Positions 5,394 through 38,241 of a stretch of 39,663 nucleotides of DNA are shown here, in pieces (position 1 is the first letter of the stretch; the number at the start of each line of letters is the position of its first letter). The notes below the pieces were generated by a model. It did not search any database and was not told the origin of the DNA. It saw only the letters and a program-made list of their open reading frames with translations. The stretch lies in sequence record DRR723986_10959; one strand, given 5' to 3'. Both the position numbers and the translations under genes were made by a program.

Positions 5394-5520
5394 TTATAAC
5401 TTCACGCCCATTACCCATTCGACCGCTCCTCGACTTCGCTCGAAGAATTGCTCAGGGTAAACTGCTCTACTTCGACAGGCTCAGCACAGGCATGGGTGTT
5501 CATAACTTCACACCCATTAC
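5394..5520. repeat. 21-bp imperfect direct repeat duplicating the 3' end of the sensor phosphatase gene
   Basis: Minus strand: GTAATGGGTGTGAAGTTATGA (5520-5500) versus GTAATGGGCGTGAAGTTATAA (5414-5394). Both read VMGVKL*. Confidence 0.85.
5416..5490. repeat. Cluster of REP-like TCGAC...GCTC palindromic units
   Basis: CATTCGAC...TTGCTCAGGGTAAAC, CTCGACTTCGCTCGAAG and CTTCGACAGGCTCAGCACAGG form a GC-rich patch between convergent genes. They resemble short dispersed repeats common in Bacteroidota. Confidence 0.65.
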
Positions 5521-8967: not shown

Positions 8968-9033
8968 CAAACTAATGAGGTTATCTAATATAGTTAATAA
9001 ATCAACTCCACATCATTAGTTTAGACGAACCAT

Positions 9034-9090: not shown

Positions 9091-9537
9091 TTATTCTCCA
9101 ATAACTTCAAAATTGAATGATTTAATAACCTCTTTGTGTAAGTTAGCAGTAGCAGTGTATGCTCCAACTTCTTTTACAGGTTCTTGATCAATTTTCAATG
9201 ATTTTCTGTCAATCTCAACACCTTCAGCTTTAAGCGCATCAGCAAGAGCGATAGTTGTAACAGAACCAAAGATTTTTCCGCTTTCACCAACTTTCGCAGC
9301 TACTTTTACAGTTAAACCTTCAAGTTTAGCTGCAATTGCTTCAGCTTCTTCTTTTACTTTTGACTCTTTGTGAGATCTTTGTTTCATTACTTCGGCATGT
9401 GCTTTCTTAGCTGATTCAGTAGCAAGAGATGCATAGCCTTGAGGAATTAAAAAGTTTCTTCCGTATCCTGCTTTCACAGTTACGACATCATCTTTATATC
9501 CTAATTTATCTACGTTTTTCTTTAATATAACTTCCAT
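9091..9537 (-). CDS. rplI: 50S ribosomal protein L9
   Basis: MEVILKKNVDKLG...VKAGYGRNFLIP and GKIFGSVT. Confidence 0.98.
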   Translation of the reverse strand: MEVILKKNVDKLGYKDDVVTVKAGYGRNFLIPQGYASLATESAKKAHAEVMKQRSHKESKVKEEAEAIAAKLEGLTVKVAAKVGESGKIFGSVTTIALADALKAEGVEIDRKSLKIDQEPVKEVGAYTATANLHKEVIKSFNFEVIGE

Positions 9538-9563
9538 GATATATGGATTAATTCGTTAAACAA

Positions 9564-9827
9564 TTACTTCATCAAATCAGCAACATAAGGTAAAATAGCT
9601 AAGTGTCTAGCTCTTTTTACTGCCTTATTTACTTTCTTTTGGAATTTTTGTGAAGTTCCAGTTACTCTTCTTGGTAAAATCTTACCTTGTTCGTTGATGA
9701 ACTTTAATAAGAAATCTGGATTTTTATAATCTATATATTTGATTCCACTTTTCTTGAAACGACAGTATTTGTCTTTTTTAATTTCAATGTTGATGGGAGT
9801 TAAATATCTAATATCTGATTGTGCCAT
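9564..9827 (-). CDS. rpsR: 30S ribosomal protein S18
   Basis: [26 protein letters not shown]...[11 protein letters not shown]. Confidence 0.98.
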
Positions 9828-9852
9828 TTTATAAATTTCAATTAATTAAACA

Positions 9853-10191
9853 CTACGCTTCAGCTTTCGCCGCGTTTCTAGTTTTTTCAGCAAATGCAAC
9901 GTGATCTTTCTCCATTCTTACAGTTAAGAATCTCATGATTCGCTCATCTCTTTTAAATTCAACCTCTAATTTCTTAATTAGAGTTCCGTCGTTTTCAAAT
10001 TCAACTAAATTGTAAAAGCCAGTCGATTTCTTTTGGATTTGATAAGCAAGCTTTTTCAATCCCCAGAATTCGTTGTGTTTAATTTTACCACCATTTTTAG
10101 TGATATAATCTTCATAGACTTTTACTGCTTCCTTTGCCTGTTCTTCAGACAAAACGGGAGTTAAAATGAAAACAGTTTCGTACCTATTCAT
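9853..10191 (-). CDS. rpsF: 30S ribosomal protein S6
   Basis: YETVFILTPVLS...WGLKKLAYQI...DERIMRFL. Confidence 0.98.
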   Translation of the reverse strand: MNRYETVFILTPVLSEEQAKEAVKVYEDYITKNGGKIKHNEFWGLKKLAYQIQKKSTGFYNLVEFENDGTLIKKLEVEFKRDERIMRFLTVRMEKDHVAFAEKTRNAAKAEA

Positions 10192-18197: not shown

Positions 18198-20588
18198 ATG
18201 TCTTTCAATTTCTTGAAGAAACTTACGCTTGGATTTGTTTTAGTATTCAGTCTTGCAAATTATTCTATTGCCCAGCATGACGATTTTGACAGTACAGAAG
18301 CCGAAGATCTTGAGCTCATTTTAAGTGATAGTACGAACCATGAGGGAATCATTGAAGAAGCCCATATAGGCGAAGGTCATGATGAACATGGAAACGGTGA
18401 GACCATTTCTGAAAATCACGGATCTACGCATGATGAAGGTCATGGAGAAGACCATGAAGGAGGGCATCACGCCGATTTCAGCCCGCTATTATTCATCATA
18501 GTTGCTTTAATTATTGGAGCCGCTACCCGTCATTTCTTATCTAAAATTGGACTTCCGTTTACCGTAGCACTACTACTCATTGGAATTGGAATAGGCGTAT
18601 TAGGACGTCATGAGTTTTTTGGTGAATTTGATATTGCTGGATACATTATAGATGCTAGCGTAGTAGATCGATCAATAGAATGGGCCGCACATATAGATGC
18701 GCACATGTTACTATACGTATTCCTACCAATCTTAATTTTTGAGGCGGCCTTTGCAATGGACGTTCACACTTTTAAAAAGTCATTCACCAACTCAGTTTTA
18801 CTTGCAGTTCCTGGAATATTAATCGCTATTTTCCTAACAGCAGCCTGTGTTTGGGCGCTAATTCATTACGGATTAGGGCTAGAAACTTGGTCTTGGGAAA
18901 TGGTCTTATTATTTGGTACCGTAATTAGTGCAACTGACCCCGTAGCGGTTGTTGCCATTCTAAAAGAATTGGGAGCGAGTAAAAAACTGGGGACCTTGAT
19001 AGAAGGAGAGTCATTACTGAATGATGGTACTGCTATCGTGATTTTCATGGTGATATTCTTAGGAATTACTGGCCAAGCTTTAGACCACTCTCCTCTACTG
19101 GAATTCTTTAGAGTTGCTTTTGGTGGAGTATTAATCGGTGCAGTGATTGGATTAATCGGATTGCGTTGGATGCGCTCAGTATTCAATGATATGCTGATCG
19201 AAATTACAATAATCGTTTCCTTGGCTTACTTAACCTTCTTTGTAAGTGAATACATGTTTGGAGTTTCAGGTGTACTTGGACTGGTGACTCTAGGACTATT
19301 GATGGCAGGTCCAGGAAGAACGAAGATTTCTCCGGAAGTGCAGCACTTCATCCATGAATTTTGGGAATTCACAGCCTTTACGGCCAATGTGCTTATCTTC
19401 TTGATAGTAGGTGTTGTTATTGCTGAGAGAACGAATTTTACCTTGAACGATATTTGGATGCTACTGGCTGTTTATGTCATTATCCACTTAGTACGTGCAG
19501 TGGTTATCGCAGTGCTTTATCCTATCATGAAACGGGCAGGATACGGATTAGGAAAAAATCACCCGCAAGCCATGTGGTGGGGAGCATTAAGAGGAGCTAT
19601 AGGATTAGCTTTAGCACTTATTGTTGAGTCTTCACCTGCTATCCCTCAAGTAATTAGAGATGAATTTTTGTTCTTAACGGCTGGAATTGTAACCATGACG
19701 CTTTTGATCAATGCTACAACCATGAAAGCCGTGGCCAACAAACTGGGCTTAACTGCCGTTTCTAGCTCTAAAAAATATGTGATAGAATCTGCTAAAGATT
19801 TTGTATTCAATCAAACTGTTGCTTCCATTGACGGATTAGAAAAAGATCGATTCTTTAAAAAGGTGAACTGGGAGGCTGTTGGTGCTTACTTACCACCTTC
19901 ATCTGCAGTAGAATCTTTATCAGACTTGAATAACTTCAAAGAAGAATCAAGACGAAGAATTCTAGAGAAAGAAAAGAGTTCTTACTGGGCACAATTTAAA
20001 GAAGGTTTGATTTCATCAGGAGCATACAACCTCTTGGTATCAGAAATTAATGAAATATTAGATTCAGGTGGAGAACGACTTTTATCTGACCGTGGAGATT
20101 TAGATGAACTTTTGGATACTAAGAATTCATTGAAAAAATTTGGAATTTTTAAAGGATTTTTCTCAAAGAGATATGTAAATCAGTTGGGGGCAAGTTTTGA
20201 TGCCGCTAAAGGATTTTACGGAGCTCAAGTTGAATGCATGAAGATGTTGAAAGAACTGCAGAAAGGAACATCTTCCGAGCAAGAGTTGGAGATATTAACT
20301 GCTATGGAGAGTGAAATTGAAGAGAATAATATTCAGGCCTTAACCTTCCTAAGAAACTTTAAAAATCAATATCCAAATATTTACCGACATGTATCTACAA
20401 GACAGGCGATCAGAACTCTCCTTAATACTGAGAAACAGAAGGTAAACGAATTGCTTAAAGCAGGTAGAATAACTGGTGAAGAGGCGAATTCAATGATTGT
20501 TGATATTGAATCTAGAATGTTGAGTTTGAGTAAGGAGAAAATGTCTAAAAGCGATCAGGATAAAGAGCAACCAAAAGAAAAACCTTAA
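18198..20588 (+). CDS. CPA1 Na+/H+ antiporter, SOS1/NhaP-like, with His-rich N-terminus and long C-terminal tail
   Basis: FLPILIFEAAF, SATDPVAVVAILKELG, IEGESLLNDG and WWGALRGAIGLALAL. Confidence 0.9.
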   Translation: MSFNFLKKLTLGFVLVFSLANYSIAQHDDFDSTEAEDLELILSDSTNHEGIIEEAHIGEGHDEHGNGETISENHGSTHDEGHGEDHEGGHHADFSPLLFIIVALIIGAATRHFLSKIGLPFTVALLLIGIGIGVLGRHEFFGEFDIAGYIIDASVVDRSIEWAAHIDAHMLLYVFLPILIFEAAFAMDVHTFKKSFTNSVLLAVPGILIAIFLTAACVWALIHYGLGLETWSWEMVLLFGTVISATDPVAVVAILKELGASKKLGTLIEGESLLNDGTAIVIFMVIFLGITGQALDHSPLLEFFRVAFGGVLIGAVIGLIGLRWMRSVFNDMLIEITIIVSLAYLTFFVSEYMFGVSGVLGLVTLGLLMAGPGRTKISPEVQHFIHEFWEFTAFTANVLIFLIVGVVIAERTNFTLNDIWMLLAVYVIIHLVRAVVIAVLYPIMKRAGYGLGKNHPQAMWWGALRGAIGLALALIVESSPAIPQVIRDEFLFLTAGIVTMTLLINATTMKAVANKLGLTAVSSSKKYVIESAKDFVFNQTVASIDGLEKDRFFKKVNWEAVGAYLPPSSAVESLSDLNNFKEESRRRILEKEKSSYWAQFKEGLISSGAYNLLVSEINEILDSGGERLLSDRGDLDELLDTKNSLKKFGIFKGFFSKRYVNQLGASFDAAKGFYGAQVECMKMLKELQKGTSSEQELEILTAMESEIEENNIQALTFLRNFKNQYPNIYRHVSTRQAIRTLLNTEKQKVNELLKAGRITGEEANSMIVDIESRMLSLSKEKMSKSDQDKEQPKEKP

Positions 20589-21103
20589 TGTTCTACCTTA
20601 CTGATATTGAATCAGAACGTTTAGTTTTCAAACCGCTCAATCATCTTTACGATAAAGATTGGGCGAGATATTTATCGAACCCCATTAATACAAAGTATTA
20701 TCCTAAAATTCCGGTTACCAGCCCAGAGCGAGCCGATTTATGGATACAATCTCAAATCGACCGGTACAAAGACAATACCCTGGGCATGTGTGCGGTTCAT
20801 TTAAAATCTACGGATGAGTTCATAGGGCAAGCAGGAGCTTTGGTTCAAGATGTGGATGGTCGAAAAGAATTTGAAGTCGGTTATCATTTTTTTGCCGAAC
20901 ATACAGGAAAAGGATATGCCACTGAGGCTGCTGTTCATTTCAAAAATTGGATTTTCAATAATTTCGATACAGATTCAGTGATCTCAATTATTCGAACTGA
21001 TAATATTCCCTCTCAGAAAGTAGCGCTAAGACACGGAATGACTAAAGATTCAGAAACTATCTGGAAAGACATGGAAGTCTTTATTTATAGAGAAAGACGT
21101 TAA
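20588..21103 (+). CDS. GNAT acetyltransferase (RimJ/RimL-like)
   Basis: ESERLVF, EVGY...GKGYATEAA and NIPSQKVA. TAATG coupling with the antiporter gene. Confidence 0.88.
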   Translation: MFYLTDIESERLVFKPLNHLYDKDWARYLSNPINTKYYPKIPVTSPERADLWIQSQIDRYKDNTLGMCAVHLKSTDEFIGQAGALVQDVDGRKEFEVGYHFFAEHTGKGYATEAAVHFKNWIFNNFDTDSVISIIRTDNIPSQKVALRHGMTKDSETIWKDMEVFIYRERR

Positions 21104-22017
21104 GCAATCTCGTATTGAGTGCTCAGATAATTTGATGCCCAAACTTCGGGGTTTCCTTTTTTATCGAAATAAAAATCGACCCTTCCTAAATAAAGACCTG
21201 CCCAGCCAACCTGATTAATGAGGACGGACCTTCCAGCTTTATTTTTATGCATTTCAGGCTTATCCATAAAGGTATGAGAATGACCACCAAGAATCAAATC
21301 TATATTTTCGGTTTCAGCGGCTAATACCTGATCACACATTTCGTTCAGTCGCTTATAATGTCCTAAATGAGACAAGCAGATTACCAAATTACACTGATAT
21401 TCTTTCTTTAGCAGAGCGGCATAATAATTTGCTTTCTCAATGGGATTCAGGTATTGAGTATTGCCATAAAGATCTTTAGGAACAAGACCATCTAACTCCA
21501 CGCCTAACCCAAAAACACCAACTCTTATAGCTCCTTTTTGAAACATTTTAAATGGAATTGTCTTGCCATTCAGTTCAGTATCACTAAAATCATAATTTGA
21601 ACATAAAAAAGGAAACTTGGCATGCGGCATTGCTTTAATGAATCCATCTATTCCCCCATCAAAATCATGATTCCCCATGGTTGCGGCATCATAACCCATT
21701 TGTGACATTAGTTTTAATTCTAACTCTCCACCATGCACATTAAAGTAAGGAGTCCCTTGAAAAATATCTCCAGCATCCAACAGGAGTACTTCTTTTTCTT
21801 GACTTCGGATGGTGTTAATTAAACTCATTCTCCTGCTTACCCCACCTTTATTCGGATATTTCTTGTGATTTTCAGGGAATGGGTCGATATGCGAATGTGT
21901 ATCGTTAGTATGAAGAATAGTGATCTTCTGGCCTTTCTGTTTGTCTTTAAATGAAGACAAAGAGGCAATGGCTAAGCTGCCAGTGGCGATTGAGGTTAAA
22001 AACTTTCTTCTATCCAT
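21100..22017 (-). CDS. 5'-nucleotidase metallophosphoesterase subunit with Tat signal
   Basis: MDRRKFL twin-arginine signal, ILHTNDTH, LDAGD, GNHDFD, LSHLG and GGHSH. Confidence 0.9.
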   Translation of the reverse strand: MDRRKFLTSIATGSLAIASLSSFKDKQKGQKITILHTNDTHSHIDPFPENHKKYPNKGGVSRRMSLINTIRSQEKEVLLLDAGDIFQGTPYFNVHGGELELKLMSQMGYDAATMGNHDFDGGIDGFIKAMPHAKFPFLCSNYDFSDTELNGKTIPFKMFQKGAIRVGVFGLGVELDGLVPKDLYGNTQYLNPIEKANYYAALLKKEYQCNLVICLSHLGHYKRLNEMCDQVLAAETENIDLILGGHSHTFMDKPEMHKNKAGRSVLINQVGWAGLYLGRVDFYFDKKGNPEVWASNYLSTQYEIA

Positions 22018-22760
22018 TAATTCAGTTTTATTCGGTTTTCAACCGGATACGCCTTGAGTTCACCCACTTTTTTGATATGTTCAATGTAGATATCGCGCAT
22101 TAAAATTCCAGAATTCCATGAATTTTTCGCTCCCTTAAAGAATTCCATTTTATCTCCTCCTCCTGCTAAATAATCTGAAGTAACAATTAATACATCTGAT
22201 TCTTTATCGAATTCTCTGCCGTTAATTACAATAGAATGATGGTCACCACTGAGATCAATTTTAGCCCCTGAAATGGGTTGTCCTTGAACTTTTTTCAGAT
22301 AATCCATCATATCAAAAAGATTACTTGCTGACAGTTGTACTAAAGTCAAGGTATTATCAAAAGGCATCAATTCGTAAACGTTTCCAACACTGATATCCCC
22401 CTGATTAACAGTAGATCTTAATCCTCCAAAATTCAGCAAGCAAAACGTATTTTTTATTAGATTACTATCAATATCTGCCTGTTTGTAGGCGTATTTCAAT
22501 CCCGCCTCTAGCATCACGTCCGCTGAAAAATTGCCTAAAGGTGATTCGGGTGTATATTTTTCCAACGACTGATTGGTATACCCGATTTTGACATTCATAG
22601 TAGCCCTCATCTCTTCACGATAAGGATTGATTATCGAGTCTAATGATGAAGACTCTTGCTCGGCATTTATCTCTGTTGTTCCTGATGAATAATCAGCAAT
22701 TTGACGAGTACCACAAGCACTCAACAATAATATGAAGAGATAAAGGCAGTAATTCTGCAT
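22017..22760 (-). CDS. 5'-nucleotidase C-terminal (substrate-binding) domain lipoprotein
   Basis: Lipobox LSAC, ESPLGNF, NFGGLR, ELMPFDN and TSDYLAGGGD. Confidence 0.9.
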   Translation of the reverse strand: MQNYCLYLFILLLSACGTRQIADYSSGTTEINAEQESSSLDSIINPYREEMRATMNVKIGYTNQSLEKYTPESPLGNFSADVMLEAGLKYAYKQADIDSNLIKNTFCLLNFGGLRSTVNQGDISVGNVYELMPFDNTLTLVQLSASNLFDMMDYLKKVQGQPISGAKIDLSGDHHSIVINGREFDKESDVLIVTSDYLAGGGDKMEFFKGAKNSWNSGILMRDIYIEHIKKVGELKAYPVENRIKLN

Positions 22761-22761
22761 C

Positions 22762-23811
22762 TTAATTCGCTACTTTTTTCAAAATAACATAGGTCGGAAA
22801 GTGATCAGAATAACCGTTTGTATATTGCCCAGCCGCGAATGTTCTCAAAGGATAATCCGCATAATTACCTTCTTGTTGAATCATATATTTTTTCTTGAAT
22901 ATTTCTGCCGTATGTAAAGTGTATCCAACCTGCGATTCATCTAAGAATGATTGAGAAATAATTATTTGATCAAATAAATTCCATGTCCCCCTATACGCCA
23001 AGGTACCGTTTCCTTTTTTCCAGGTTTTGTAGAGGGTATTGTACATATCCCCTTTTTCTAATTTCGCTTGTTTACCTTTCGCCTTGATATATTCTGTTAC
23101 TGCTAAATTGTTAGGGTCATCATTTAAATCACCCATTAAAATGATTTTTGCTTCAGGATTATCTGTAAATAAAGAATCAATTATCCTTCTCCCTAATTTC
23201 CCAGCCTCTATTCTATTGGGTTCTGATGCTTGCTGACCACCTCTTCTAGAAGGCCAATGCGCTACAATAAAAGTCACATCTTCGCCATCCATATTTCCCG
23301 TTACGACTAATTGATCACGCGTTTTATAATCCTCATTAAAAGGCATAATCAATTCATAGGATACCGCTTTTTTTAATTTGAAGTATTTTTCTTGATACAA
23401 TAATCCAACATCAATTCCTCTTCTATCAGGAGAATCGAAATGCGCAATTTGATACTTTCTTTTAGCAATGCTAGGTTCTTTGACTAAATCTTCAAGAACT
23501 CTTTTATTTTCTACTTCACAAACTCCTAAAACAGCAGCTCCATCTGGCGTATAAGCTGTTCCGATTTCAGAAATGACCTTAGCCATATGATTCAATTTTG
23601 TATGGTACTTAGTAGAGTCCCATGCTTTTTCAGAATCTGGCATGTATTCTTCATCTCTGATCTTAGGATCATCTTCATAGTCAAACAGGTTTTCTAAATT
23701 GTAAAAGCCTGAACAAACTATTTTGTAGGCCACTTGATCTTGTGAATAAGCTGAACCTGAAACAGTTAAAAGAAATGCAAGAATAATAATTAACGAGTTG
23801 GAACTTTTCAT
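22762..23811 (-). CDS. Exported endonuclease/exonuclease/phosphatase (EEP) family protein
   Basis: Signal peptide from ATG 23811, YNLENLFD, GVCEVEN, SPDRRGIDV, HWPSRRGG, MGDLND, WNLFDQI and YSDHFP. Confidence 0.9.
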   Translation of the reverse strand: MKSSNSLIIILAFLLTVSGSAYSQDQVAYKIVCSGFYNLENLFDYEDDPKIRDEEYMPDSEKAWDSTKYHTKLNHMAKVISEIGTAYTPDGAAVLGVCEVENKRVLEDLVKEPSIAKRKYQIAHFDSPDRRGIDVGLLYQEKYFKLKKAVSYELIMPFNEDYKTRDQLVVTGNMDGEDVTFIVAHWPSRRGGQQASEPNRIEAGKLGRRIIDSLFTDNPEAKIILMGDLNDDPNNLAVTEYIKAKGKQAKLEKGDMYNTLYKTWKKGNGTLAYRGTWNLFDQIIISQSFLDESQVGYTLHTAEIFKKKYMIQQEGNYADYPLRTFAAGQYTNGYSDHFPTYVILKKVAN

Positions 23812-23829
23812 TGTAATGATTTGTGTGTT

Positions 23830-23837
23830 CAAATTTA
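23830..23837 (-). promoter_or_regulatory. -7 element for the EEP/nucleotidase operon
   Basis: Minus strand TAAATTTG. It covers the ORF-track TTG 'start', which supports ATG 23811 as the real start. Confidence 0.55.
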
Positions 23838-23921
23838 TTCATAATTATCAAATGCCAGACCAAAGTTGGATGAACCAAATGTTAACAACTTATTATAAGA
23901 TTATAAAATTTGGTAGATGGA

Positions 23922-23954
23922 TTTGGTAGGTTACTTCTTAATTTTGTAGCTTTG
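23922..23954 (+). promoter_or_regulatory. Bacteroidota sigmaA promoter of the TonB-dependent receptor operon
   Basis: TTTG 23922-23925, 21-nt spacer, TAGCTTTG 23947-23954. Confidence 0.75.
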
Positions 23955-24000
23955 CCAGGCCTTTTTTCAAAAACGAGGGCTTCAATCACACAGATTAAAC

Positions 24001-26535
24001 ATGTTGAAAAACTTTACACTACTCTTACTTATGGTGACCTCGTGCACCTTAAGTTTTGCCCAAGATGACTCAACAAGAGTTGGTTCAATTGAAGATACAT
24101 TAAACGACAACACCCCCGTTTTCATTTCAAGTTTAGATGACATTGGAAATAATGGAGGAAACGTTTCAGGTTTATTACAGTCTTCAAGAGATGTTTTTGC
24201 CGCAACTGCCGGTTTTAACTTTTTTGCAGCCCGTTTCAGAATTAGAGGATATGACGGAGATAAAACAACAATTTTCGTTAATGGGGTTCCGACTGGGGAC
24301 GCAGTAACTGGATGGAGCCAATTCTATAAATGGGGTGGTCTAAATGATGTGACTCGTTATGCAGAAACTAAAAAATGGCTAACTGATAACCCTTACCATT
24401 TTGGTGGAATCGGAGGATATTCTAATATTGACATTTCGGCAACATCCGTTAGAAAAGGATGGCGTGTATCATATGCGAACGCCAATAGATCATATCGTCA
24501 ACGATTAATGTTGACTTATGGTACGGGTATGATGAAAAATGGATGGGCATTTGCTTTCTCAGCATCAACAAGATATGCTAGAGAAGGGTATGTAGAAGGT
24601 ACATACTATAACAATGTCTCTTATTATGCTTCTGCTAAAAAACAAATCAATAAAAACCACAGTTTAAACTTCTCTATTCTTGGATCTCCTAGAGAAAGAG
24701 GTCGTTCAAACATTTTTGTGCAAGAAGTTTATGACTTAACTGGAGATATTTATCACAACACCAATTGGGGCTGGCAAACGTTATCATCAGGTGATTCAGT
24801 TAAACGAAATGGAAACATTGCACGAGAGCACGTTCCAATTTTAACTTTAAATCACGAGTGGAAAATCAATGATAAAACCAAATTGAACACCTCTATCCTA
24901 TCTTCTTTTGGAAAACGAGGAAGAGAGCGATTGAACTGGTATGATGCAAAAGATCCTAGACCTGATTACTACAGATACCTACCTTCTTATTACGAGTCCT
25001 TAAACGACCAAGCTAATGCTAATGTATTAAGAAATGGGTGGGAAAATGGGAATCCAGATTTTACGCAAATTAATTGGGACGGATTATATCGTGCAAACGA
25101 TAATAATTTATACACGTTATTAGATGCAGATGGGCAAACAGGAAATACGTTGAACGGGAAGAGGTCTAAATATATCATGGAGAATCAATGGAATAATGAA
25201 TTATCAATTTCAGGAGCATCTGTGTTGACCAAGTATTATGATAAAATGAATTTCACTGCTGGGGTTTACTATCAAATGCAAAGAAACCATTACTTCAAAA
25301 CGATTGCCGATTTATTAGGTGGGGATTATTGGGTAGATGTTGACCAGTTCGCAGAGCAAGACTTCCTGGATCCAGTAGCAGCTCAAAACAATGCTGAAAC
25401 ACCAAATAGAACAGTTAGAGTTGGTGATACGTTTGGATGGGATTTCTATATCCACAACCATGAAGCCACGGCCTTCGCGCAAGTGGCCTACACATTAAAA
25501 AACATTGACTGGTATGCGGCAGTTGAAATATCTGACCAATTCTTTTATAGAGAGGGTGTTTATCAAAACGGAAGATTTTTAGAGGATTCTAAAGGAAAAT
25601 CAGATACTTACAATTTTTTCAACTATGCAGCTAAAGGTGGAATCACTTATAAAATTTCTGGAAGACAATATATTACTGCGAATGCAGCTTATTTGACTGA
25701 GGCACCTACTTCAAGAAACGTATTCATTTCTCCTAGAACGAGAGATTATACAGTAGATAATCCGCAAAACGAAACGATCTACACAGGTGATGTATCTTAC
25801 ATCTTAAGATACCCGAAATTAAAAATGAGAGCTACTTATTATTATATGGAGAGAAAAGACGCCTTATGGTCAAGAAGTTTTTATCATGACGAATACAGAT
25901 CTTTTGTGAATTATGTGATGGAAGGAGTTGATTACTGGCATCATGGAGCAGAATTTGGAGTTGACGGAACCATTGTTGGAGGATTAAGTGCAAATGGTGT
26001 TTTAGCTTGGGGACAACACCTCTATAATTCAAGACCAACTGCTTCAATCTACAGAGACAACTCTGCAGAATTAATTGATGAGGATAAAACAGTTTATTTG
26101 AAAAATTATAAGATTGGTGGAATGCCTCAGTCGGCTGCATCATTGGGATTAAAATATTCAGGAAAAAAATATTGGTTTGCAGGCGTTAGCTTCAATTATT
26201 TTATGGATATCTACTTAGATCCTTCTCCGGACAGAAGAACAGAAGAGGCAGTAGCGAACTTTGTTGAATCTGATCCACAATGGAATGAAACATTAGACCA
26301 AACGAGATTAGACAACGGTTATAGCCTAAACATTATTGGAGGTAAGTCCTTTAAATTTGGAGATTACTATTTAAGCCTTTTCGGAAACATTACCAATGTA
26401 ACGAATAACAGAGATTTTATTACAGGAGGATTTGAACAGTTGAGATTCGATAAAACGAATACAAATAAGTTCCCACCTAAAGTATCCTATATGTACGGAA
26501 TCAATTATTTCGTTTCAGCAACATTAAGATTTTAA
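24001..26535 (+). CDS. TonB-dependent receptor-like outer-membrane protein
   Basis: Signal peptide, plug-like FRIRGYD...IFVNGVP, aromatic-rich beta strands, NITNVTN and a C-terminal Phe (VSATLRF). Confidence 0.82.
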   Translation: MLKNFTLLLLMVTSCTLSFAQDDSTRVGSIEDTLNDNTPVFISSLDDIGNNGGNVSGLLQSSRDVFAATAGFNFFAARFRIRGYDGDKTTIFVNGVPTGDAVTGWSQFYKWGGLNDVTRYAETKKWLTDNPYHFGGIGGYSNIDISATSVRKGWRVSYANANRSYRQRLMLTYGTGMMKNGWAFAFSASTRYAREGYVEGTYYNNVSYYASAKKQINKNHSLNFSILGSPRERGRSNIFVQEVYDLTGDIYHNTNWGWQTLSSGDSVKRNGNIAREHVPILTLNHEWKINDKTKLNTSILSSFGKRGRERLNWYDAKDPRPDYYRYLPSYYESLNDQANANVLRNGWENGNPDFTQINWDGLYRANDNNLYTLLDADGQTGNTLNGKRSKYIMENQWNNELSISGASVLTKYYDKMNFTAGVYYQMQRNHYFKTIADLLGGDYWVDVDQFAEQDFLDPVAAQNNAETPNRTVRVGDTFGWDFYIHNHEATAFAQVAYTLKNIDWYAAVEISDQFFYREGVYQNGRFLEDSKGKSDTYNFFNYAAKGGITYKISGRQYITANAAYLTEAPTSRNVFISPRTRDYTVDNPQNETIYTGDVSYILRYPKLKMRATYYYMERKDALWSRSFYHDEYRSFVNYVMEGVDYWHHGAEFGVDGTIVGGLSANGVLAWGQHLYNSRPTASIYRDNSAELIDEDKTVYLKNYKIGGMPQSAASLGLKYSGKKYWFAGVSFNYFMDIYLDPSPDRRTEEAVANFVESDPQWNETLDQTRLDNGYSLNIIGGKSFKFGDYYLSLFGNITNVTNNRDFITGGFEQLRFDKTNTNKFPPKVSYMYGINYFVSATLRF

Positions 26536-26537
26536 TT

Positions 26538-27803
26538 ATGAAGATGAACAAAATTTTTGCTCTACTCCTATTGTCAGCGGTATTCGTGGCTTGTAAAAAA
26601 GAGCCAGACTCTCCACCTGTAAACACATTGAATCAAGGAAAAGTTGTCACGATAGATTCTTTACGTGCTATGCAAATGGCCGTTGCACCAGGTGGAGTAT
26701 CGATTGATGATTCGTTGACCACATTCGCAATTGTTACCATGGATGAATCTTCAGGAAATATCTACAAAAATCTATACATACAAGATCACACTGGTGGAAT
26801 TCAGGTAAGATTGACTGCATCAAGCGATTTTGCGGTTGGAGATTCTTTACGTATCAATCTTTTGGGAGCATATCTTAGTGAGTATAACGGAACCATTCAA
26901 TTAGATTCGATTGATCCGGACAATGACATTGTTCGCCAATCACAGGGATATCCAATCAGTCCAGCAGTAATGACAGTTGAAGATATTATTGCCGTAGCGA
27001 ATGATCCAGACCCAACAAAATTTTCGGACTTAGAAGGTACATTGGTTAAGGTGACTGATATTCAATTCACCACTGGAAATTTAACAACTACTTATGCAGA
27101 TGCCATCAATCAATCTTCTGAAAACAGAATTTTAGAGTCATGTGCAGGAGGTGCAAATATTTTAGTAAGAACTTCTGGTTTCGCTGACTTTGCAGGAGAT
27201 ACAGTTGCACAAGGACAAGGTGATATGACTGTTATAATCGGTCGTTTTGGATCTGATATTCAATTATTGATTAGAAATCCGAATGAAATAAATCTAAACG
27301 GGGCAAGATGTGCTGGTCAAATTTTAATTAAAGATTTTGATGATAATGATGTGACTTCAGGAGGCTGGTCTGATGTTGTGGTTGTTGGAACAACTATTTG
27401 GGAAACCAGTACTGCTGGAGGAGCTCCTAGTCCCTATGGAGTTATCAGTAACTATAATGGTACTAACACGGCTGCAGAGAATTGGTTAATATCGCCAGAT
27501 ATTGATTTATCAGGCTCTTCTACTCCTAACTTGAGCTTTAGAAATGCTTATAACTATACTGGTCCCGCGCTTGAATTATTGGTATCAACAGATTATACCG
27601 GAGTTGGAAATCCTAACTCAGCGACTTGGATAGATTTATCATCTCAGGTGACATGGTCAACTGGAGGTTTTACGTTTGTAGAATCAGGCAGTATTGATTT
27701 GTCAGCTTATGCTGGAGGATCATTGCGTATTGCGTTTAAGTATACTGGTTCAAACAGTGACGGCAGTACTTGGGAAATTGATGACATTATAATTAACGGA
27801 TAA
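26538..27803 (+). CDS. Surface lipoprotein, DUF5689-like (OB-fold) plus choice-of-anchor-J/cleaved-adhesin-like domain
   Basis: Lipobox FVAC-KKEPD, DESSGNIYKNLYIQD..GGI, VRTSGFADFAG, then WLISPDIDLS...GSTWEIDDIII. Confidence 0.72.
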   Translation: MKMNKIFALLLLSAVFVACKKEPDSPPVNTLNQGKVVTIDSLRAMQMAVAPGGVSIDDSLTTFAIVTMDESSGNIYKNLYIQDHTGGIQVRLTASSDFAVGDSLRINLLGAYLSEYNGTIQLDSIDPDNDIVRQSQGYPISPAVMTVEDIIAVANDPDPTKFSDLEGTLVKVTDIQFTTGNLTTTYADAINQSSENRILESCAGGANILVRTSGFADFAGDTVAQGQGDMTVIIGRFGSDIQLLIRNPNEINLNGARCAGQILIKDFDDNDVTSGGWSDVVVVGTTIWETSTAGGAPSPYGVISNYNGTNTAAENWLISPDIDLSGSSTPNLSFRNAYNYTGPALELLVSTDYTGVGNPNSATWIDLSSQVTWSTGGFTFVESGSIDLSAYAGGSLRIAFKYTGSNSDGSTWEIDDIIING

Positions 27804-27804
27804 G

Positions 27805-29040
27805 ATGAAGTTGAAAACATTAAACTATTTAGGAGCTGGGCTATTGGCATTAATTGTCCTTGCATCTTGTAAAAAAGAATACGACACTCCACCACTAACT
27901 TATCCTGAAGATGGTGGTAATATTACTATCGATAGCCTGAAATTATTGCAAGCCAGCAATGGATCAGTATCCTTTACCAGCAACAAAACGGTTTCGGGTA
28001 CCATCACTATGGATGAAAATGACGGAAACATTTATAAAAATGTTTACATGCAAGACAGTACTGGCGCCATCAACGTGCGTTTGCTGACAGGAGGAGGTCT
28101 GTATGTTGGTGATAAAGTTAAGATAAGCCTAGACGGTTGTTATTTAAGTCGTTTCAACGGTGTTTTACAGTTAGACTCAGTTAATGCAGATGTGAATGTA
28201 ATTAAACAATCATCTGGGAATTATTTTGCTCCAGAGGTAACAACAATTGATCAATTAACGACTTTGAAAGAGTCTGAGTTGATCCAACTCAATAATGTTC
28301 AATTTATTAGCTCTGAGCTCGGTGAAACATACGCGGATAAGATCAATCAAATTTCTCAAGATCACTTATTAGAAGATCAAAACGGTAATACGGTCGTAGT
28401 GAGAACAAGCGGATACGCAAGTTTTGCTGGAGAATTAATGGCAAGCGGAAGCGGAAGTATCGTTCTAATTGCAGCCGTTTATAATGGCGCAATGCAATTG
28501 TTAATTCGCGATTATTCTGAGATTAATTTTAATCAACCGAGATTCAATGGCTTAGCTTTATTTAAAGATTTTAATGATGATGAAATCACTTCGTTTGGAT
28601 GGACAACTCATCAGGTGGCAGGAACATTTACTGAATGGGAGGCTAGTTCAGCTGGTGGAGCACCCAATCCTTATGCTGCGATTTCAAACTATGACGGTTC
28701 AGTCAATGAAGTTGCTGATGTATGGTTAATTTCTCCATCTGTAGATTTATCTAGTTTTTCTACACCGAAACTGTCATTTGATAATGCTTACAACTACACG
28801 GGACCCGCTTTAGAAGTGTACATTTCAAATAATTATATGTCAGGTGCACCAAACACTGGAACATGGACGGACATAACATCTATGGCAAACTGGTCTTCTG
28901 GTGGATTTACATTCGTCAATTCCGGATTAATTGACATTTCTGCTTATACGGGAACAAATGTACATATAGGATTTAGATACCAAGGAACAGGCTCAACTGG
29001 AAGCACCTGGGAACTTGATAATATCTTAATAAAGGATTAA
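27805..29040 (+). CDS. Surface lipoprotein, paralog of the upstream gene
   Basis: Lipobox LASC-KKEYD, DENDGNIYKNVYMQD, VRTSGYASFAG, WLISPSVDLS...GSTWELDNILI. Confidence 0.72.
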   Translation: MKLKTLNYLGAGLLALIVLASCKKEYDTPPLTYPEDGGNITIDSLKLLQASNGSVSFTSNKTVSGTITMDENDGNIYKNVYMQDSTGAINVRLLTGGGLYVGDKVKISLDGCYLSRFNGVLQLDSVNADVNVIKQSSGNYFAPEVTTIDQLTTLKESELIQLNNVQFISSELGETYADKINQISQDHLLEDQNGNTVVVRTSGYASFAGELMASGSGSIVLIAAVYNGAMQLLIRDYSEINFNQPRFNGLALFKDFNDDEITSFGWTTHQVAGTFTEWEASSAGGAPNPYAAISNYDGSVNEVADVWLISPSVDLSSFSTPKLSFDNAYNYTGPALEVYISNNYMSGAPNTGTWTDITSMANWSSGGFTFVNSGLIDISAYTGTNVHIGFRYQGTGSTGSTWELDNILIKD

Positions 29041-29082
29041 CTTGCCTTAAAAGTTAAATGAATAATTTTAAATAAAAACAAT

Positions 29083-30477
29083 ATGAAAAAAACTTTACTT
29101 TTTATTGCAGCAGCATTTACTTTAAGTTCAGCTGAAGCTCAGTACTTTCAAGACGATTTTGAAGGTGGAACGTTAACGGCTAACCATGCTTGGCAAACTC
29201 AGGTAATTTCAAATCCAGACGCAATTAATGGAGATTGGGTATTAGGAACAGTTTCTGGGAATTATGCCAAATTATCAAACTTTGTGTCAAGTGCAAATCA
29301 CGTTTTAAATTCTTGGTTTATATCGCCATCAATTGACTTGAGCACTTCTACTCAACCAGTATTAAAATTTGACAATACAAAAAGATATGCAGGTGATGAT
29401 ATGATTGTACACATTTCAACTGATTATACTGGTTCTGGGGCTCCGAGTTCTGCTACATGGACAGATATTACAAGTTTGTTTACTTTGAATGCAGACGAAT
29501 CTTCATGGAGTTTTACGGGTTCTGGAGATGGTGACATTTCAGCCTATATTTCAGCTAACACTTACATAGCTTTCGAATATATAGGAACTGCAACTGATGG
29601 TTCTACTTGGGAAGTGGATAATGTTGTTATCCAAGAAGGTCCAACTGTGACCACTATAACTTCTATTTATGACATTCAGTACACTACTGCTCCTGGAGGA
29701 GAATCTCCAGAAGATGGGAACGTTGTTACAACAAGAGGAGTGGTAACTGGAGTTTATCAAATTGGTACAAACGCGGACCGTTTCTTCATCCAAGACGGAG
29801 ATGGCGCATGGAACGGAATCTATGTGTATGAAAATGGATTTCCTGTTGCAATTGGTGACTCAGTATTGGTAACTGGAGAAGTAACTGAATACTTCGGTTT
29901 GACTGAGATTTCATTTGTCAGTGATGTTACAATTTTGAACTCTGGAAATGCTATGCCTAATCCAGCAGTAGTAACTAACGCAACATTAGGTAACGAAGAG
30001 TACGAAGGCGTTTTGGTAACATTAGAAGATGCTATTTGTATTACAACTGAAAATCAATACGGTGAATGGACTGCAAATGATGGTACAGCAACTTTCGTAA
30101 CAATTGATGACGATTTATTACCGGCTATGTATTCTCCGGTATTAGGAGATGGATATGACATCACTGGTATCAGACATTTTGCGTTTGATTTAAACATCAT
30201 CTACCCTACTTCAAGTTCTCAAATTGTAACTGTAGGATGGGCTGGAATTGATGAGAACAACCCAACGTTCTCAATTTACCCTAATCCTGCAACTGATGTG
30301 ATTACATTAAACGTTGATCCAACTGCGATTGTAAATGTTTATTCTATTTCTGGAGCAGCTGTTTATACTGGAACTGCTACTAATACAATTGATGTATCAA
30401 ATTTAGATGCTGGAATCTACACTGTTGCTGTTACAACAAATGGTGTAACTGAATCACAAAGATTAGTGATTAGATAA
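29083..30477 (+). CDS. T9SS-secreted protein: choice-of-anchor-J-like domain, nuclease-accessory OB folds, type A CTD
   Basis: WFISPSIDLS...GSTWEVDNVVI; SIYDIQ...GNVVTTRGVVTG...FFIQD...GIYVY...GDSVLVTGEVTEYFGLTEI; EEYEGVLV; CTD IYPNPATD...LDAGIYTV...QRLVIR. Confidence 0.78.
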   Translation: MKKTLLFIAAAFTLSSAEAQYFQDDFEGGTLTANHAWQTQVISNPDAINGDWVLGTVSGNYAKLSNFVSSANHVLNSWFISPSIDLSTSTQPVLKFDNTKRYAGDDMIVHISTDYTGSGAPSSATWTDITSLFTLNADESSWSFTGSGDGDISAYISANTYIAFEYIGTATDGSTWEVDNVVIQEGPTVTTITSIYDIQYTTAPGGESPEDGNVVTTRGVVTGVYQIGTNADRFFIQDGDGAWNGIYVYENGFPVAIGDSVLVTGEVTEYFGLTEISFVSDVTILNSGNAMPNPAVVTNATLGNEEYEGVLVTLEDAICITTENQYGEWTANDGTATFVTIDDDLLPAMYSPVLGDGYDITGIRHFAFDLNIIYPTSSSQIVTVGWAGIDENNPTFSIYPNPATDVITLNVDPTAIVNVYSISGAAVYTGTATNTIDVSNLDAGIYTVAVTTNGVTESQRLVIR

Positions 30478-30494
30478 TTACAAATGAAATCAAT

Positions 30495-30532
30495 AAAAAA
30501 CCTCCTTAGAATTTCTAAGGAGGTTTTTTTTT
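30495..30532. terminator. Bidirectional intrinsic terminator
   Basis: AAAAAACCTCCTTAGA-ATT-TCTAAGGAGGTTTTTTTTT is a perfect inverted repeat between convergent genes. Confidence 0.92.
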
Positions 30533-30552: not shown

Positions 30553-32067
30553 TTACTCAGCGTCCAACTCAGCTCTTATTCTCTGGCTAAGCTGTCTGTT
30601 ATACGTTTCTTTCAACCAGTTGAGATAGTTGTCAGTTGCTTTAGTAATGCATTTTGTATAATGCTTTAAACGTCTCTCGATATCATCCTGCATTTCATTC
30701 AACAACAACAAACCATCATACATATCTTCTGAATTCTCTGCAATCACTTCAAAGTGGTTATCCAAAGAAACATCTACTGCTTCTTTTCCTTTCTTCCCCT
30801 CTTCAATGCAGGTATCATAGACATGCTTCATTGAGAACTCTTCTAGTTTGGCAGGATTCTTCAACTTTTCTTTCAAGTTTCTTGAAAGCTCATAGTCTGC
30901 CTCAAATAACAAATCATCCTCTTCACTTAAACGTGCTTCTAAAAATCTATCAGGATAATTAAAGGCGTCTTGCCAGTCAATGTACTCTTGCCAGTAACCA
31001 AATCTTCTTACGTTATTCCCTAAGTCAATGACTTGGAATACGCTTTTATTTTTCAATTTTCTGGACCCACGACCTATCATTTGATGATAAAGTGTCAAAG
31101 ATCGAGTGGCTCTGTTCAAAATGATCGTTTCTACTGTTGGTTCATCAAAACCTGTTGTCAAAATTCCGACAGATGTCAGAACAGCTCCAGGTGTCTCTTT
31201 AAACCACTTCAAAATATCTTTTCGATCGCCATCTGAGAAGGTGCTATCTAGATGTCTTACTTTATAATTGTGCTTCTTAAATAGATCATAAACTGATCTA
31301 GAAGATTCAATCCCTGAATTAAAAATTAAGGTCTTTTTCCCTACTGCCACCTCTTCATAGGCAAATAGTAATTTCTCTTGCATGAAGTAATTACTGTAAA
31401 CTTTATCAGAAGATGATACTGTAAAGTCTCCGTTAACACCTATTTTTAAACCGTGCAAGTTTACATCATAAGTATAGGTCTCTGCATTTGATAAGTACTC
31501 CTTTTCGATAAGCGATTTAATGGATTCACCAACAATCAACTTGTCGTAATTATCTTTTAAGGGTAATGCTTTATTAGAACTTAAAGGAGTTGCAGTAACA
31601 CCTAAAATATTTATGTTTTCGAAATATTGGAAAATCTTTCTAAAGGAATTATTGTGGGCTTCATCCACAATTACCAATCCTACATTTTCAATGAATTGCT
31701 TATTTTCTTGCAATCTATTGTTAAGGGTTTCAACCATTGCAGTGAATGATTGATATTGATCTTGATCATCTAATGTTTTTACCAAGCTATTGATTACCTT
31801 ATTTTCAACATTCAAGGCTGTCAATTGTTTTGAAGTTTGAACACACAATTCAATTCGGTGTGTTAGGATCAAAACTTTTTTATTGGTTTTTTTAATATAA
31901 TCCTTGGCAATGTTTGAAAAGATGACCGTTTTACCTCCTCCAGTTGGAAGTTGGAACAAGAGATTAAAATTCTCTCCCTCCTTAACCAGCTCGTTAATTA
32001 TCTGGTTTACAACCTTTTTCTGAAATGGATATAATTCTTTTTTCTTAAAAAGACTCTTGTCTATCAT
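30553..32067 (-). CDS. SF2 DEAD/DEAH-box helicase
   Basis: LYPFQ, QLPTGGGKT, IVDEAH, TATP, LTTGFDEP and QMIGRGSR. Confidence 0.92.
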   Translation of the reverse strand: MIDKSLFKKKELYPFQKKVVNQIINELVKEGENFNLLFQLPTGGGKTVIFSNIAKDYIKKTNKKVLILTHRIELCVQTSKQLTALNVENKVINSLVKTLDDQDQYQSFTAMVETLNNRLQENKQFIENVGLVIVDEAHNNSFRKIFQYFENINILGVTATPLSSNKALPLKDNYDKLIVGESIKSLIEKEYLSNAETYTYDVNLHGLKIGVNGDFTVSSSDKVYSNYFMQEKLLFAYEEVAVGKKTLIFNSGIESSRSVYDLFKKHNYKVRHLDSTFSDGDRKDILKWFKETPGAVLTSVGILTTGFDEPTVETIILNRATRSLTLYHQMIGRGSRKLKNKSVFQVIDLGNNVRRFGYWQEYIDWQDAFNYPDRFLEARLSEEDDLLFEADYELSRNLKEKLKNPAKLEEFSMKHVYDTCIEEGKKGKEAVDVSLDNHFEVIAENSEDMYDGLLLLNEMQDDIERRLKHYTKCITKATDNYLNWLKETYNRQLSQRIRAELDAE

Positions 32068-33245: not shown

Positions 33246-33278
33246 AAGCCTTTCGCCTTGCGGAGGGCTTTATTTTTT
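33246..33278 (+). terminator. Intrinsic terminator of trxB
   Basis: AAGCCTTTCGC-CTT-GCGGAGGGCTT followed by TATTTTTT. Abuts the recR stop. Confidence 0.75.
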
Positions 33279-33890
33279 CATCAAGTTCATATCAAAAGGG
33301 AGTCGATTGATAATTGATCGACCTAAGGTCAATTCATCTGCATATTGCAATTCTGTGCCTACCGCCACTCCTCTTGATAATGTCGTGACTTTAATATCAA
33401 AATCAGCCAGTTTTCTAAACAGATAAAAATTGGTGGTATCACCTTCCATTGAAGCATTCAGGGCTAATATCACTTCACTGATTTCACCGGTCTGAATTCG
33501 ACTCATTAAACTCTCAATATTCAGATCATTTGGTCCAATTCCCTCCATTGGAGAAATAACTCCTCCTAAAACATGATAGGTTCCAAAATATTGCTGTGTA
33601 CTCTCAATTGCCAAAATATCTCGGATATCTTCAACTACACAAATGAGTTCTTGCTTTCTAGAATCTTGTAAACAAATTTCGCAATGCTCGGCATCAGAGA
33701 TATTGCCACAATTTCCGCAAGTTTTGATTTTATCTTGTATTTCTCCTAGAGACTTTGAAAAAGCCTCTAACTCACTTTGATCTCTTTTTAGCAGGTTAAG
33801 CACTAATCTCAATGCCGTCTTTTTCCCTATTCCCGGCAAAGACGAGAAATGTTCAACGAGATCTTCTAAGTATTTTGAAGGAATATTCAC
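33270..33890 (-). CDS. recR: Recombination mediator RecR
   Basis: LPGIGKKTALRL, CGNC...CEIC, ICVVE, YHVLGGVISP and YADELTL. Probable GTG start at 33890. Confidence 0.95.
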   Translation of the reverse strand: MNIPSKYLEDLVEHFSSLPGIGKKTALRLVLNLLKRDQSELEAFSKSLGEIQDKIKTCGNCGNISDAEHCEICLQDSRKQELICVVEDIRDILAIESTQQYFGTYHVLGGVISPMEGIGPNDLNIESLMSRIQTGEISEVILALNASMEGDTTNFYLFRKLADFDIKVTTLSRGVAVGTELQYADELTLGRSIINRLPFDMNLMKK

Positions 33891-33894
33891 TTGA

Positions 33895-33902
33895 CAAAAA
33901 TA
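33895..33902 (-). promoter_or_regulatory. -7 element of recR
   Basis: Minus strand TATTTTTG, ending 4 nt before the GTG. Confidence 0.55.
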
Positions 33903-33981
33903 AAACAAAGTCTTTCATCAATCACGCGATATTTAATAGAATATCAACAATCTAAAATCAATAATTAATATCTTAGAGGGT

Positions 33982-37854: not shown

Positions 37855-38241
37855 ATGACCCTATACATTGAAGGACAAAGACGATCGTTAAAAGTGGATA
37901 TTAATTCTGAAACTGGAGAATTTTTATTTGCAGGTGTATCATTACCTGAAAACACGAATTCATTTTTCCAACCGGTAATAGAAGAAATTGAAGCTTATTT
38001 GGAAAACCCTAAAGAACACACTACTATTAACTTTTTTGTAGAGTATCTCAATACAAGTTCTGCACTTTTTTTAAGAAGAATAGTGTTGTTGTGTGAGGAA
38101 GCGATTGATGAAGGTAAATTAACAGTGAATTGGCATTACGAAAAAGATGATGAGGACATTCAGGAGTTTGGATATGATTTTCAATCCATCTTCAAGAAAG
38201 TAAGGGTTGAAGTCAAAGAAATTGAGGAAAACCCTTACTAG
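37855..38241 (+). CDS. SiaC family (DUF1987) regulatory phosphoprotein
   Basis: GVSLPEN...FFQP, YLNTSS and VNWHYEKDDEDIQEFG. Confidence 0.8.
   Translation: MTLYIEGQRRSLKVDINSETGEFLFAGVSLPENTNSFFQPVIEEIEAYLENPKEHTTINFFVEYLNTSSALFLRRIVLLCEEAIDEGKLTVNWHYEKDDEDIQEFGYDFQSIFKKVRVEVKEIEENPY

Follow-up and report, generated by a model that had tools for sequence, protein, structure and literature searches.

The closest described relative of the system reported here is the ddbABCDEF locus of Bacteroides thetaiotaomicron, which is needed for the depletion of exogenous DNA, as established by deletion and complementation, and for the production of uracil and xanthine (PMC12478041). We describe a comparable set of seven open reading frames (ORFs) lying within positions 21100..30532 of a 39,663-nt stretch of sequence record DRR723986_10959, the whole of which is called the window below. 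In B. thetaiotaomicron, deleting ddbABCDEF abolishes DNA depletion; DdbA, DdbB, and DdbF degrade DNA in vitro, and DdbC is a TonB-dependent transporter for which AlphaFold3 predicts an interface with the DUF5689 protein DdbD (PMC12478041). The authors explicitly likened the locus to a polysaccharide utilization locus (PUL) and related it to Riemerella genes that neighbor a ddbB homolog (PMC12478041). It apparently corresponds to BT3558-BT3563 of strain VPI-5482, where a TonB-dependent receptor (BT3560) and a hypothetical protein (BT3561) are accompanied by two nuclease lipoproteins (BT3562 and BT3563), BT_3558 is annotated "endonuclease," and BT3563 acts as an extracellular DNase (PMC8851478). 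These annotations confirm what an initial annotation of the window, made from the sequence alone, had stated of BT3559-BT3563 as a receptor clustered with nucleases.

A second point of comparison is a gene pair of Riemerella anatipestifer, RA0C_RS04915 (an outer-membrane protein) and RA0C_RS04920 (DUF5689 plus DUF5017, choice-of-anchor J), in which transposon hits abolish or reduce natural transformation and whose products were proposed to bind DNA and carry it over the outer membrane (PMC8459023). The window shares with this pair a barrel protein followed in one operon by a DUF5689 plus DUF5017/choice-of-anchor J protein, as well as membership in the order Flavobacteriales, and the Riemerella genes have a ddbB-like neighbor; by contrast, the role demonstrated there is transformation, and no nucleotidase is reported beside the pair.

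Taken together, the domain content and gene order of the window locus lead us to favor, with somewhat more confidence than doubt, a Ddb-type system for the capture, import, and digestion of extracellular DNA in a Crocinitomicaceae bacterium. A PUL-like system for nucleic acids had been proposed in the initial annotation, and both homology and synteny support it; because this kind of system is already published, the locus opens no new category. As in the ddb locus, a DUF5689 protein directly follows the TonB-dependent transporter (at a gap of 2 nt in the window), additional surface proteins are encoded, and the logic is PUL-like with no SusD; a predicted nuclease with a signal peptide, lying next to the transporter, may be the counterpart of DdbB. 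The window locus is nevertheless a variant. Its two-domain lipoprotein (DUF5689 plus choice-of-anchor J) is duplicated at full length, a paralog with permuted domains is anchored through the type IX secretion system (T9SS), an exported 5'-nucleotidase split over two genes lies within the operon, the nuclease arm diverges from the transporter arm, and a lipoprotein or secreted nuclease, i.e., a counterpart of DdbA or DdbF, is missing. Searches against Pfam and NCBIfam returned no surface or secreted nuclease between 21100 and 30532; related loci have T9SS-tagged EEP proteins, Endonuclease I, or Endonuclease_NS. The published Pv2 subtype is likewise described without a secreted nuclease (PMC12478041). 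That paper uses neither "nucleotidase" nor "phosphatase" in its main text (0 occurrences each), and its five text supplements likewise contain no instance of "nucleotidase."

Two further families of systems frame the comparison. The locus is not a SusC/SusD PUL. With such PULs it has in common the general logic of binding at the surface, passage through a TonB-dependent transporter partnered by a lipoprotein, and completion by periplasmic hydrolases, whereas Pfam detected no SusD and no glycoside hydrolase in its genes and flanks, just as the initial annotation had stated, and the polymer is presumed to be DNA. With the ExeM/NucH/YhcR nucleases, it shares an N-terminal OB-containing region, matched by the middle domain of the T9SS-anchored protein; the N-terminal region of ExeM comprises two putative OB folds and is essential for activity (PMC6085458). 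Unlike those nucleases, the three surface proteins of the window lack a catalytic nuclease domain and would bind DNA rather than cut it.

The identification of the transporter required a structure because the Pfam Plug match is weak by sequence (7e-4, below the curated cut-off). An AlphaFold model built on a 49-sequence alignment (predicted local distance difference test [pLDDT] 80.6; predicted template modeling score [pTM] 0.81; region 17-62 disordered) adopts a barrel-plus-plug fold, and Foldseek aligned it over ~800 columns with YncD, PqqU, Fiu, FhuA, and FecA (E 1e-23 to 1e-20), the best structural match being YncD (6v81, E 1.3e-23). The earlier call of a TonB-dependent receptor thus agrees with the modeled resemblance to classical TonB-dependent transporters, and the product is a putative member of the outer-membrane transporters that pair with DUF5689 lipoproteins, such as DdbC and RA0C_RS04915. 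All 50 structural matches listed were classical siderophore- or metal-type transporters with no SusC among them, and a PDB sequence search with the transporter profile gave a single spurious short match only. The N-terminus, read by eye, carries a Sec signal, and homologs are named TonB-dependent receptor, with the best named matches in Crocinitomicaceae. The carboxypeptidase-regulatory-like N-terminal domain annotated in RA0C_RS04915 is absent from the window protein and was found in one of 16 transporter family members scanned (L074:8950-11606, Saprospiraceae). This domain of L074 and the DUF5689 partner conserved beside the transporter (61/65 loci) point indirectly to kinship with DdbC and RA0C_RS04915.

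The leftward arm encodes the enzymes, namely the exported EEP protein and the two-gene 5'-nucleotidase that the initial annotation had anticipated. The EEP protein matches Pfam PF19580 (Exo_endo_phos_3, E 3.6e-125) and retains the conserved acidic, asparagine, and histidine positions of the EEP superfamily, with residues N45, E47, E106, E108, D235, N237, D238, D288, D343, and H344 invariant across the alignment (57/57 homologs). It is probably periplasmic, since its N-terminus (read by eye) has a Sec-type signal peptide without a lipobox; a lipobox is equally absent in 54 of the 57 homologs. A sequence search gave no PDB relative of this protein. The window places an exported PF19580 protein with intact catalytic residues beside the transporter; the candidate for DdbB, BT_3559, is annotated as "hypothetical protein" only.

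The remaining two leftward genes encode a 5_nucleotid_C protein (PF02872, E 6.3e-16) and a metallophosphatase (Metallophos, PF00149, E 1.6e-16). In NCBIfam, the former matches the C-terminal parts of the UshA and PRK09419 models (UshA positions 343-543), and the latter matches UshA positions 25-257 (E 2.1e-33), by which the pair is predicted to be a UshA-type 5'-nucleotidase split into a catalytic half and a substrate-binding half. Both domains and the export are common to UshA-type periplasmic enzymes; in place of a single chain, the window has two overlapping genes whose products carry signals for different export routes, twin-arginine translocation (Tat) for the catalytic half and lipoprotein export for the substrate-binding half. 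The twin-arginine motif of the metallophosphatase (RRKFL, read by eye) recurs in RRxFL-like form in 109 of 117 homologs of at least 295 aa, and the LSAC lipobox that marks the 5_nucleotid_C protein as a lipoprotein has an equivalent in every copy (7/7, window included). Short metallophosphatases of this kind abound, which makes the split ordinary rather than new: every candidate scored in the metallophosphatase search (8000/8000) fell at E ≤ 1e-20, and homologs of ~305 aa are named metallophosphatase or bifunctional metallophosphatase/5'-nucleotidase.

The three proteins encoded downstream of the transporter, described earlier as two paralogous OB-fold-like lipoproteins and a T9SS OB-fold protein, proved to be built from the same two modules. 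Lipoproteins 1 and 2, which are 49% identical, carry in Pfam DUF5689 (PF18942; E 1.9e-45 and 3.1e-42 in the two proteins) and DUF5017, and NCBIfam adds choice-of-anchor J to all three downstream proteins. In Bacteroidota, acidic residues near the lipobox cysteine mark surface export. Both DUF5689 proteins have a lipobox, that of lipoprotein 1 being Cys19 followed by KKEPD, and among 90 DUF5689 proteins a lipobox was present in 70, of which 64 have an acidic residue at +2 to +6 of the cysteine. Such acidic residues after the lipobox cysteine are also taken as the mark of surface export in the methods of the ddb study (PMC12478041). The model of lipoprotein 1 (pLDDT 91.8) consists of two beta-strand blocks separated by helices (residues ~60-255) and a jelly roll (residues ~260-421). 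Its Foldseek matches are dominated by the jelly roll and comprise the carbohydrate-binding domain 8jiy, MAM, gingipain adhesin, and ephrin-receptor domains; 8jiy, from a putative chondroitinase, is also matched by sequence profile (E 1.3e-12). The p204 HINab-dsDNA structure (5z7d_B) appears at rank 17 (E 7.4e-6).

The T9SS protein has a Sec signal (read by eye) and a permuted order, in which choice-of-anchor J is followed by a DUF5689-like, ExeM/NucH-N-terminal-like domain (188-392) and a C-terminal sorting domain of the kind found in type A T9SS cargo. Pfam reports DUF5017 and the sorting domain (PF18962, 8.9e-12; also matched by TIGR04183, 1e-12), NCBIfam reports the ExeM/NucH N-terminal match (E 2.5e-14), and in the PDB the profile matches residues 2-112 of the EEP-domain protein 9sf8_A (E 4.6e-9) and the sorting domain 8glj_D (E 6.2e-12). 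Whole-length hhalign against the lipoprotein recovered the jelly-roll match only; trimming to the domains brought out a further alignment, between the middle domain (188-392) and the N-domain of the lipoprotein (96% probability, E 3.8e-9, 192 columns). These profile relations indicate that the same two modules recur in all three proteins, the T9SS protein having them in permuted order and all three lacking a catalytic domain, and they suggest that DUF5689 is a putative DNA-binding domain of tandem OB-like build.

The wider DUF5689 family is large, with 14,346 representative clusters of lipoprotein relatives at E ≤ 1e-3 and 2,750 at E ≤ 1e-30; an Atlas search, which serves as a lead only, gave DUF5689 clusters at a score of 0.85. 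Many relatives (P0243-P0392) are 600-700 aa or longer with two to six profile matches, i.e., repeated DUF5689 and/or jelly-roll domains, and P0241 combines a lamin-tail domain with DUF5689. A tree of 31 lipoproteins from 24 chosen Flavobacteriales-type loci brings the first and second copies of each lineage together, a pattern that indicates gene conversion or duplication on repeated occasions.

The conservation of the arrangement was investigated by scanning species-representative genomes with a 15-sequence transporter alignment and taking the best 80 loci among at least 600 stretches, 597 of them confirmed (80 loci at 37-64% identity; numbered with the prefix L), a sample that represents the nearer part of the transporter family. 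The seven proteins of the window served as phmmer queries (E ≤ 1e-5) for labeling the ORFs, and upstream counts refer to 72 evaluable loci, as L039 has no transporter ORF and seven loci have less than 1.3 kb upstream. The loci span Flavobacteriales, Chitinophagales, Saprospirales, and Bacteroidales. A PF19580 EEP gene stands immediately upstream of the transporter and divergent from it in 53/72 loci (median gap, 138 bp), elsewhere in the locus in 5/72, and is absent in 14/72; a Pfam scan of 72 neighbors in these EEP-less loci found Endonuclease_NS in three (L036, L053, and L078). The linkage of the receptor family to nucleases, on which the proposal had been staked beforehand, is strong, with some nuclease-family gene nearby in 61 of the 72 loci. 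Recurrent neighbors include T9SS-tagged PF03372 EEP proteins (10 loci in one cluster and 7 in another), an Endonuclease I that carries a T9SS domain (L005, L007, and L076), Endonuclease_NS with an OB domain, and RecJ a few genes downstream (7 loci). On the other side, a DUF5689 gene lies at most two genes downstream of the transporter in 61/65 loci having at least 1.3 kb of downstream sequence; where at least 4 kb is available (56 loci), one DUF5689 gene is present in 37, two in 16, and none in 3. The T9SS paralog occurs in 19/53 loci with at least 5.5 kb downstream, nearly all of them Flavobacteriales.

Phylogeny was used to place the window and its nucleotidase. A FastTree of 76 transporters, which excludes five loci whose ORF is missing or below 780 aa, places the window with full support in a clade of six Crocinitomicaceae rows, all of which have the nucleotidase pair. 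A seventh occurrence of the pair (L021) lies elsewhere on the tree, giving two changes by parsimony, and the tree otherwise follows taxonomy. Best-match names and the tree assign the lineage to Crocinitomicaceae, in keeping with the aquatic lineage suggested at the outset, and, with the pair located in the operon of the nuclease and kept throughout this clade, the claim that the terminal nucleotidase step is physically included holds.

Several arrangements outside the Crocinitomicaceae were recorded in the course of this survey. Ten Chitinophagaceae-type loci (L042, L043, L044, L045, L050, L054, L067, L068, L069, and L080) have the EEP gene directly abutting the ribosomal S6-S18-L9 operon; a relation to the S6/L9 genes of the window (9091-10191) was considered and rejected as coincidence because 12.5 kb separates them from the EEP gene. 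In one of these loci, from a Chitinophagaceae metagenome-assembled genome, the EEP gene is split into overlapping ORFs (L054:8784-9494 and 9481-9891; 236 and 136 aa), a frameshift or assembly error. A short DUF5689-only lipoprotein (~240-265 aa; L056:12538-13269 and similar) is encoded between the transporter and a longer DUF5689 protein in 10 Chitinophagaceae-type loci, and DUF5689-only genes of ~260 aa occur in Bacteroidales loci (e.g., L052:12523-13305). This short-plus-long arrangement is closer to the DdbD/DdbE pair than are the two full-length copies of the window.

From these components a route for the polymer can be proposed. The two surface lipoproteins and the T9SS-anchored paralog, each with its DUF5689 tandem-OB-like domain, would hold DNA at the cell surface, one of the lipoproteins would cap the TonB-dependent transporter, and DNA or DNA fragments would be pulled into the periplasm. 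A transporter-lipoprotein complex is expected because the genes adjoin and because of the published AlphaFold3 model of DdbC/DdbD. The PF19580 EEP nuclease would then cut the DNA in the periplasm, where the 5'-nucleotidase, assembled from its Tat-exported catalytic half and its lipoprotein substrate-binding half, would release phosphate and nucleosides, which would be taken up by other transporters whose genes lie elsewhere. Gene content, domain families, folds, conserved catalytic residues, export signals, and conserved synteny are what the analysis establishes; from these we infer DNA binding, DNA as the substrate, this localization and order of steps, and nutrient acquisition as the purpose.

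Certain observations weigh against such a Ddb-type system. The likeness of the window transporter and EEP protein to DdbC and DdbB is one of descriptions and gene order, and the window locus, which encodes no nuclease with a lipoprotein or T9SS signal, lacks a counterpart of the cutting that the published model places outside the cell. Among the evaluable loci, 11/72 have no nuclease-like gene nearby by Pfam of their neighbors, some of these lying on short contigs, and only 6 of the 80 loci have the nucleotidase pair beside the system. The best structural matches of lipoprotein 1 are carbohydrate-binding/MAM-like jelly rolls reached through the C-terminal domain, the rank-17 HIN-dsDNA match has a TM-score of 0.22-0.23, and when longer fusions of DUF5689 to a nuclease were sought, two proteins came up, neither of them with a nuclease domain and one with a lamin-tail domain.

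As no outside nuclease is encoded, in contrast to the published Bt1 model, cutting would fall to enzymes encoded elsewhere, or long DNA would be imported. A bolder version of the latter, which we offer as tentative and fairly improbable, is that the trio of EEP protein, transporter, and DUF5689 lipoprotein is of ancestral origin, extends through the phylum, and takes polymeric DNA in whole through the TonB-dependent transporter, and that Crocinitomicaceae run it import-first, with no outside cutting and with all hydrolysis in the periplasm, down to phosphate and nucleosides through the split nucleotidase; the import step itself could feed transformation or nutrition. If true, these aquatic Crocinitomicaceae would obtain phosphorus by consuming dissolved DNA directly and "selfishly." Water and sediment contain a large pool of phosphorus and nitrogen in the form of dissolved DNA, and Bacteroidota are major polymer degraders there. 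The present locus indicates that a DNA-handling transporter system of gut Bacteroides and Riemerella also occurs in free-living Crocinitomicaceae, where the operon extends to the phosphate-releasing step and the surface binding module is triplicated, one copy being delivered through the T9SS. Beside the published ddb locus, it is this environmental setting and the possible import-first logic that remain of interest. Moreover, at least four orders share one divergent layout of the nuclease, transporter, and lipoprotein core, which provides a simple marker for such loci in environmental genomes, and Crocinitomix algicola and Putridiphycobacter roseus are tractable organisms for asking whether a TonB-dependent transporter carries polymeric DNA.

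The main rival explanation, which we regard as unlikely yet deserving of the most weight, is that the core of EEP protein, transporter, and DUF5689 lipoprotein chiefly serves the outer-membrane uptake step of natural transformation, with the nucleotidase cleaning up the unkept strand. Since the same core serves transformation in Riemerella, utilization is not the sole possible reading: RA0C_RS04915 and RA0C_RS04920 are required there (PMC8459023), the latter has the same domain architecture as the window lipoproteins, the genes neighbor a ddbB homolog (PMC12478041), and transformation is inhibited in tonBA and tonBB mutants (PMC8383284). The absence of a secreted nuclease at the window locus would suit the import of long DNA. 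The window lipoproteins also match, end to end and below the cut-off, the Riemerella-named NCBIfam lipoprotein model M949_1556 (E 1.1e-55); the literature on M949_1556 describes a mutant with changed antigenicity, lipopolysaccharide, and virulence, and no link to RA0C_RS04920 was found in it. Full degradation is suggested instead by the coupling of the transporter to a complete operon for nuclease and nucleotidase, and the window transporter lacks the additional N-terminal domain of RA0C_RS04915. No comEC, dprA, or comF was detected by Pfam within the 39.6-kb window, although such linkage is not necessary. Under the conditions of one study, Flavobacterium johnsoniae showed no competence (PMC7965970), and its genus has homologs of both Riemerella genes (PMC8459023, Table 4). 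The conserved core by itself does not discriminate between nutrition and transformation, and both roles may coexist.

It is improbable that the transporter and lipoproteins import a substrate of another class, such as a glycan or glycoconjugate held by the jelly roll, with the nuclease neighborhood incidental or regulatory. Such an alternative would account for the carbohydrate-binding, MAM, and gingipain adhesin matches and for the profile match to 8jiy, and our literature search found no published experimental demonstration of DNA binding by DUF5689. The neighborhood argues otherwise, with nuclease genes of four families accompanying the transporter in the 61 of 72 loci noted above, over several orders, and with no carbohydrate-active enzyme in the conserved set; the ddb deletion phenotype, furthermore, is DNA-specific (PMC12478041). 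Surface handling of DNA for matrix or biofilm remodeling rather than import, as proposed for the BT3563 DNase, is very improbable: BT3560-3563 did emerge from a biofilm screen, BT3563 degrades biofilm extracellular DNA (PMC8851478), and the window does encode three surface proteins with putative DNA-binding domains, but its locus has no surface or secreted nuclease, its TonB-dependent transporter and periplasmic enzymes imply import, and the B. thetaiotaomicron effect was traced mainly to BT3563 itself (PMC8851478).

The locus is compactly laid out (Table 1). The positions given in the initial annotation were confirmed for each of the seven genes, for the 1-2 bp junctions between them, for the divergent region, and for the terminator. 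On the minus strand, a 1-nt gap separates the EEP and 5_nucleotid_C genes and a 1-nt overlap joins the latter to the metallophosphatase gene; the gaps of the rightward arm are, in gene order, 2, 1, and 42 nt. The intergenic region measures 168 bp with the TTG start of the EEP gene and 189 bp with its ATG start, the latter value corresponding to the ~190 bp estimated previously. Sharing this short control region, the two arms are probably co-regulated.

Table 1. Positions of the genes and candidate control elements of the locus in the window
Feature	Position	Strand	Details
EEP nuclease gene	23832..22762	-	356 aa with TTG start; ATG at 23811 gives 349 aa
5_nucleotid_C gene	22760..22017	-	247 aa
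Metallophosphatase gene	22017..21100	-	305 aa
Transporter gene	24001..26535	+	844 aa
DUF5689 lipoprotein 1 gene	26538..27803	+	421 aa
DUF5689 lipoprotein 2 gene	27805..29040	+	411 aa
T9SS protein gene	29083..30477	+	464 aa
Divergent control region	23833..24000	.	candidate -7 box, palindrome, and repeats, from sequence
Candidate -7 box for the rightward operon, TAnnTTTG-type, TAGCTTTG	23947-23954		from sequence
8-bp palindrome TGTTAACA	23880-23887		from sequence
Two exact ATTTGGTAG repeats	23908-23916, 23921-23929		13 nt apart
Intrinsic terminator, bidirectional	30495-30529	.	16-pair stem, 3-nt loop, flanked by A-run and T-run

Within the control region, the candidate -7 box follows a consensus that we take to be of the TAnnTTTG type and is kept in five of six sequences when the window is aligned with five Crocinitomicaceae loci. 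The core of the palindrome (TTAACA) is likewise kept in 5/6 of these sequences (positions aligned in L001, L002, L031, and L048), and TGTTAACA may be a candidate regulator site; the motif alone is not significant, because the window contains two copies against 1.13 expected by chance. A third copy of ATTTGGTAG with one mismatch (23941-23949) overlaps the putative -7 box, and the exact pair is not conserved in the aligned Crocinitomicaceae relatives. A sigma-70 promoter scan of the window was not above chance (39 found, 38.1 expected from shuffles), and Rfam identified no RNA family in it.

The strong terminator expected to close the rightward arm is present as a 16-pair hairpin with a T-run and separates the operon from a convergent ResIII/DEAD helicase gene (30553-32067, minus strand); over the window as a whole, the terminator scan yielded no excess over chance (4 found, against 6.8 expected from shuffles). 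At the opposite end, a GNAT acetyltransferase gene (20588-21103, plus strand) is convergent with the metallophosphatase gene and overlaps its end by 4 nt, and a RecR gene lies at 33270-33908; none of these three neighbors is conserved beside the system in related loci. Farther away, the window encodes a 1156-aa sensor with TPR, PAS, two GAF, and SpoIIE-type phosphatase domains (5500-8970, minus strand) and, at 37855-38241, a SiaC-family regulatory phosphoprotein next to a SulP transporter and a carbonic anhydrase.

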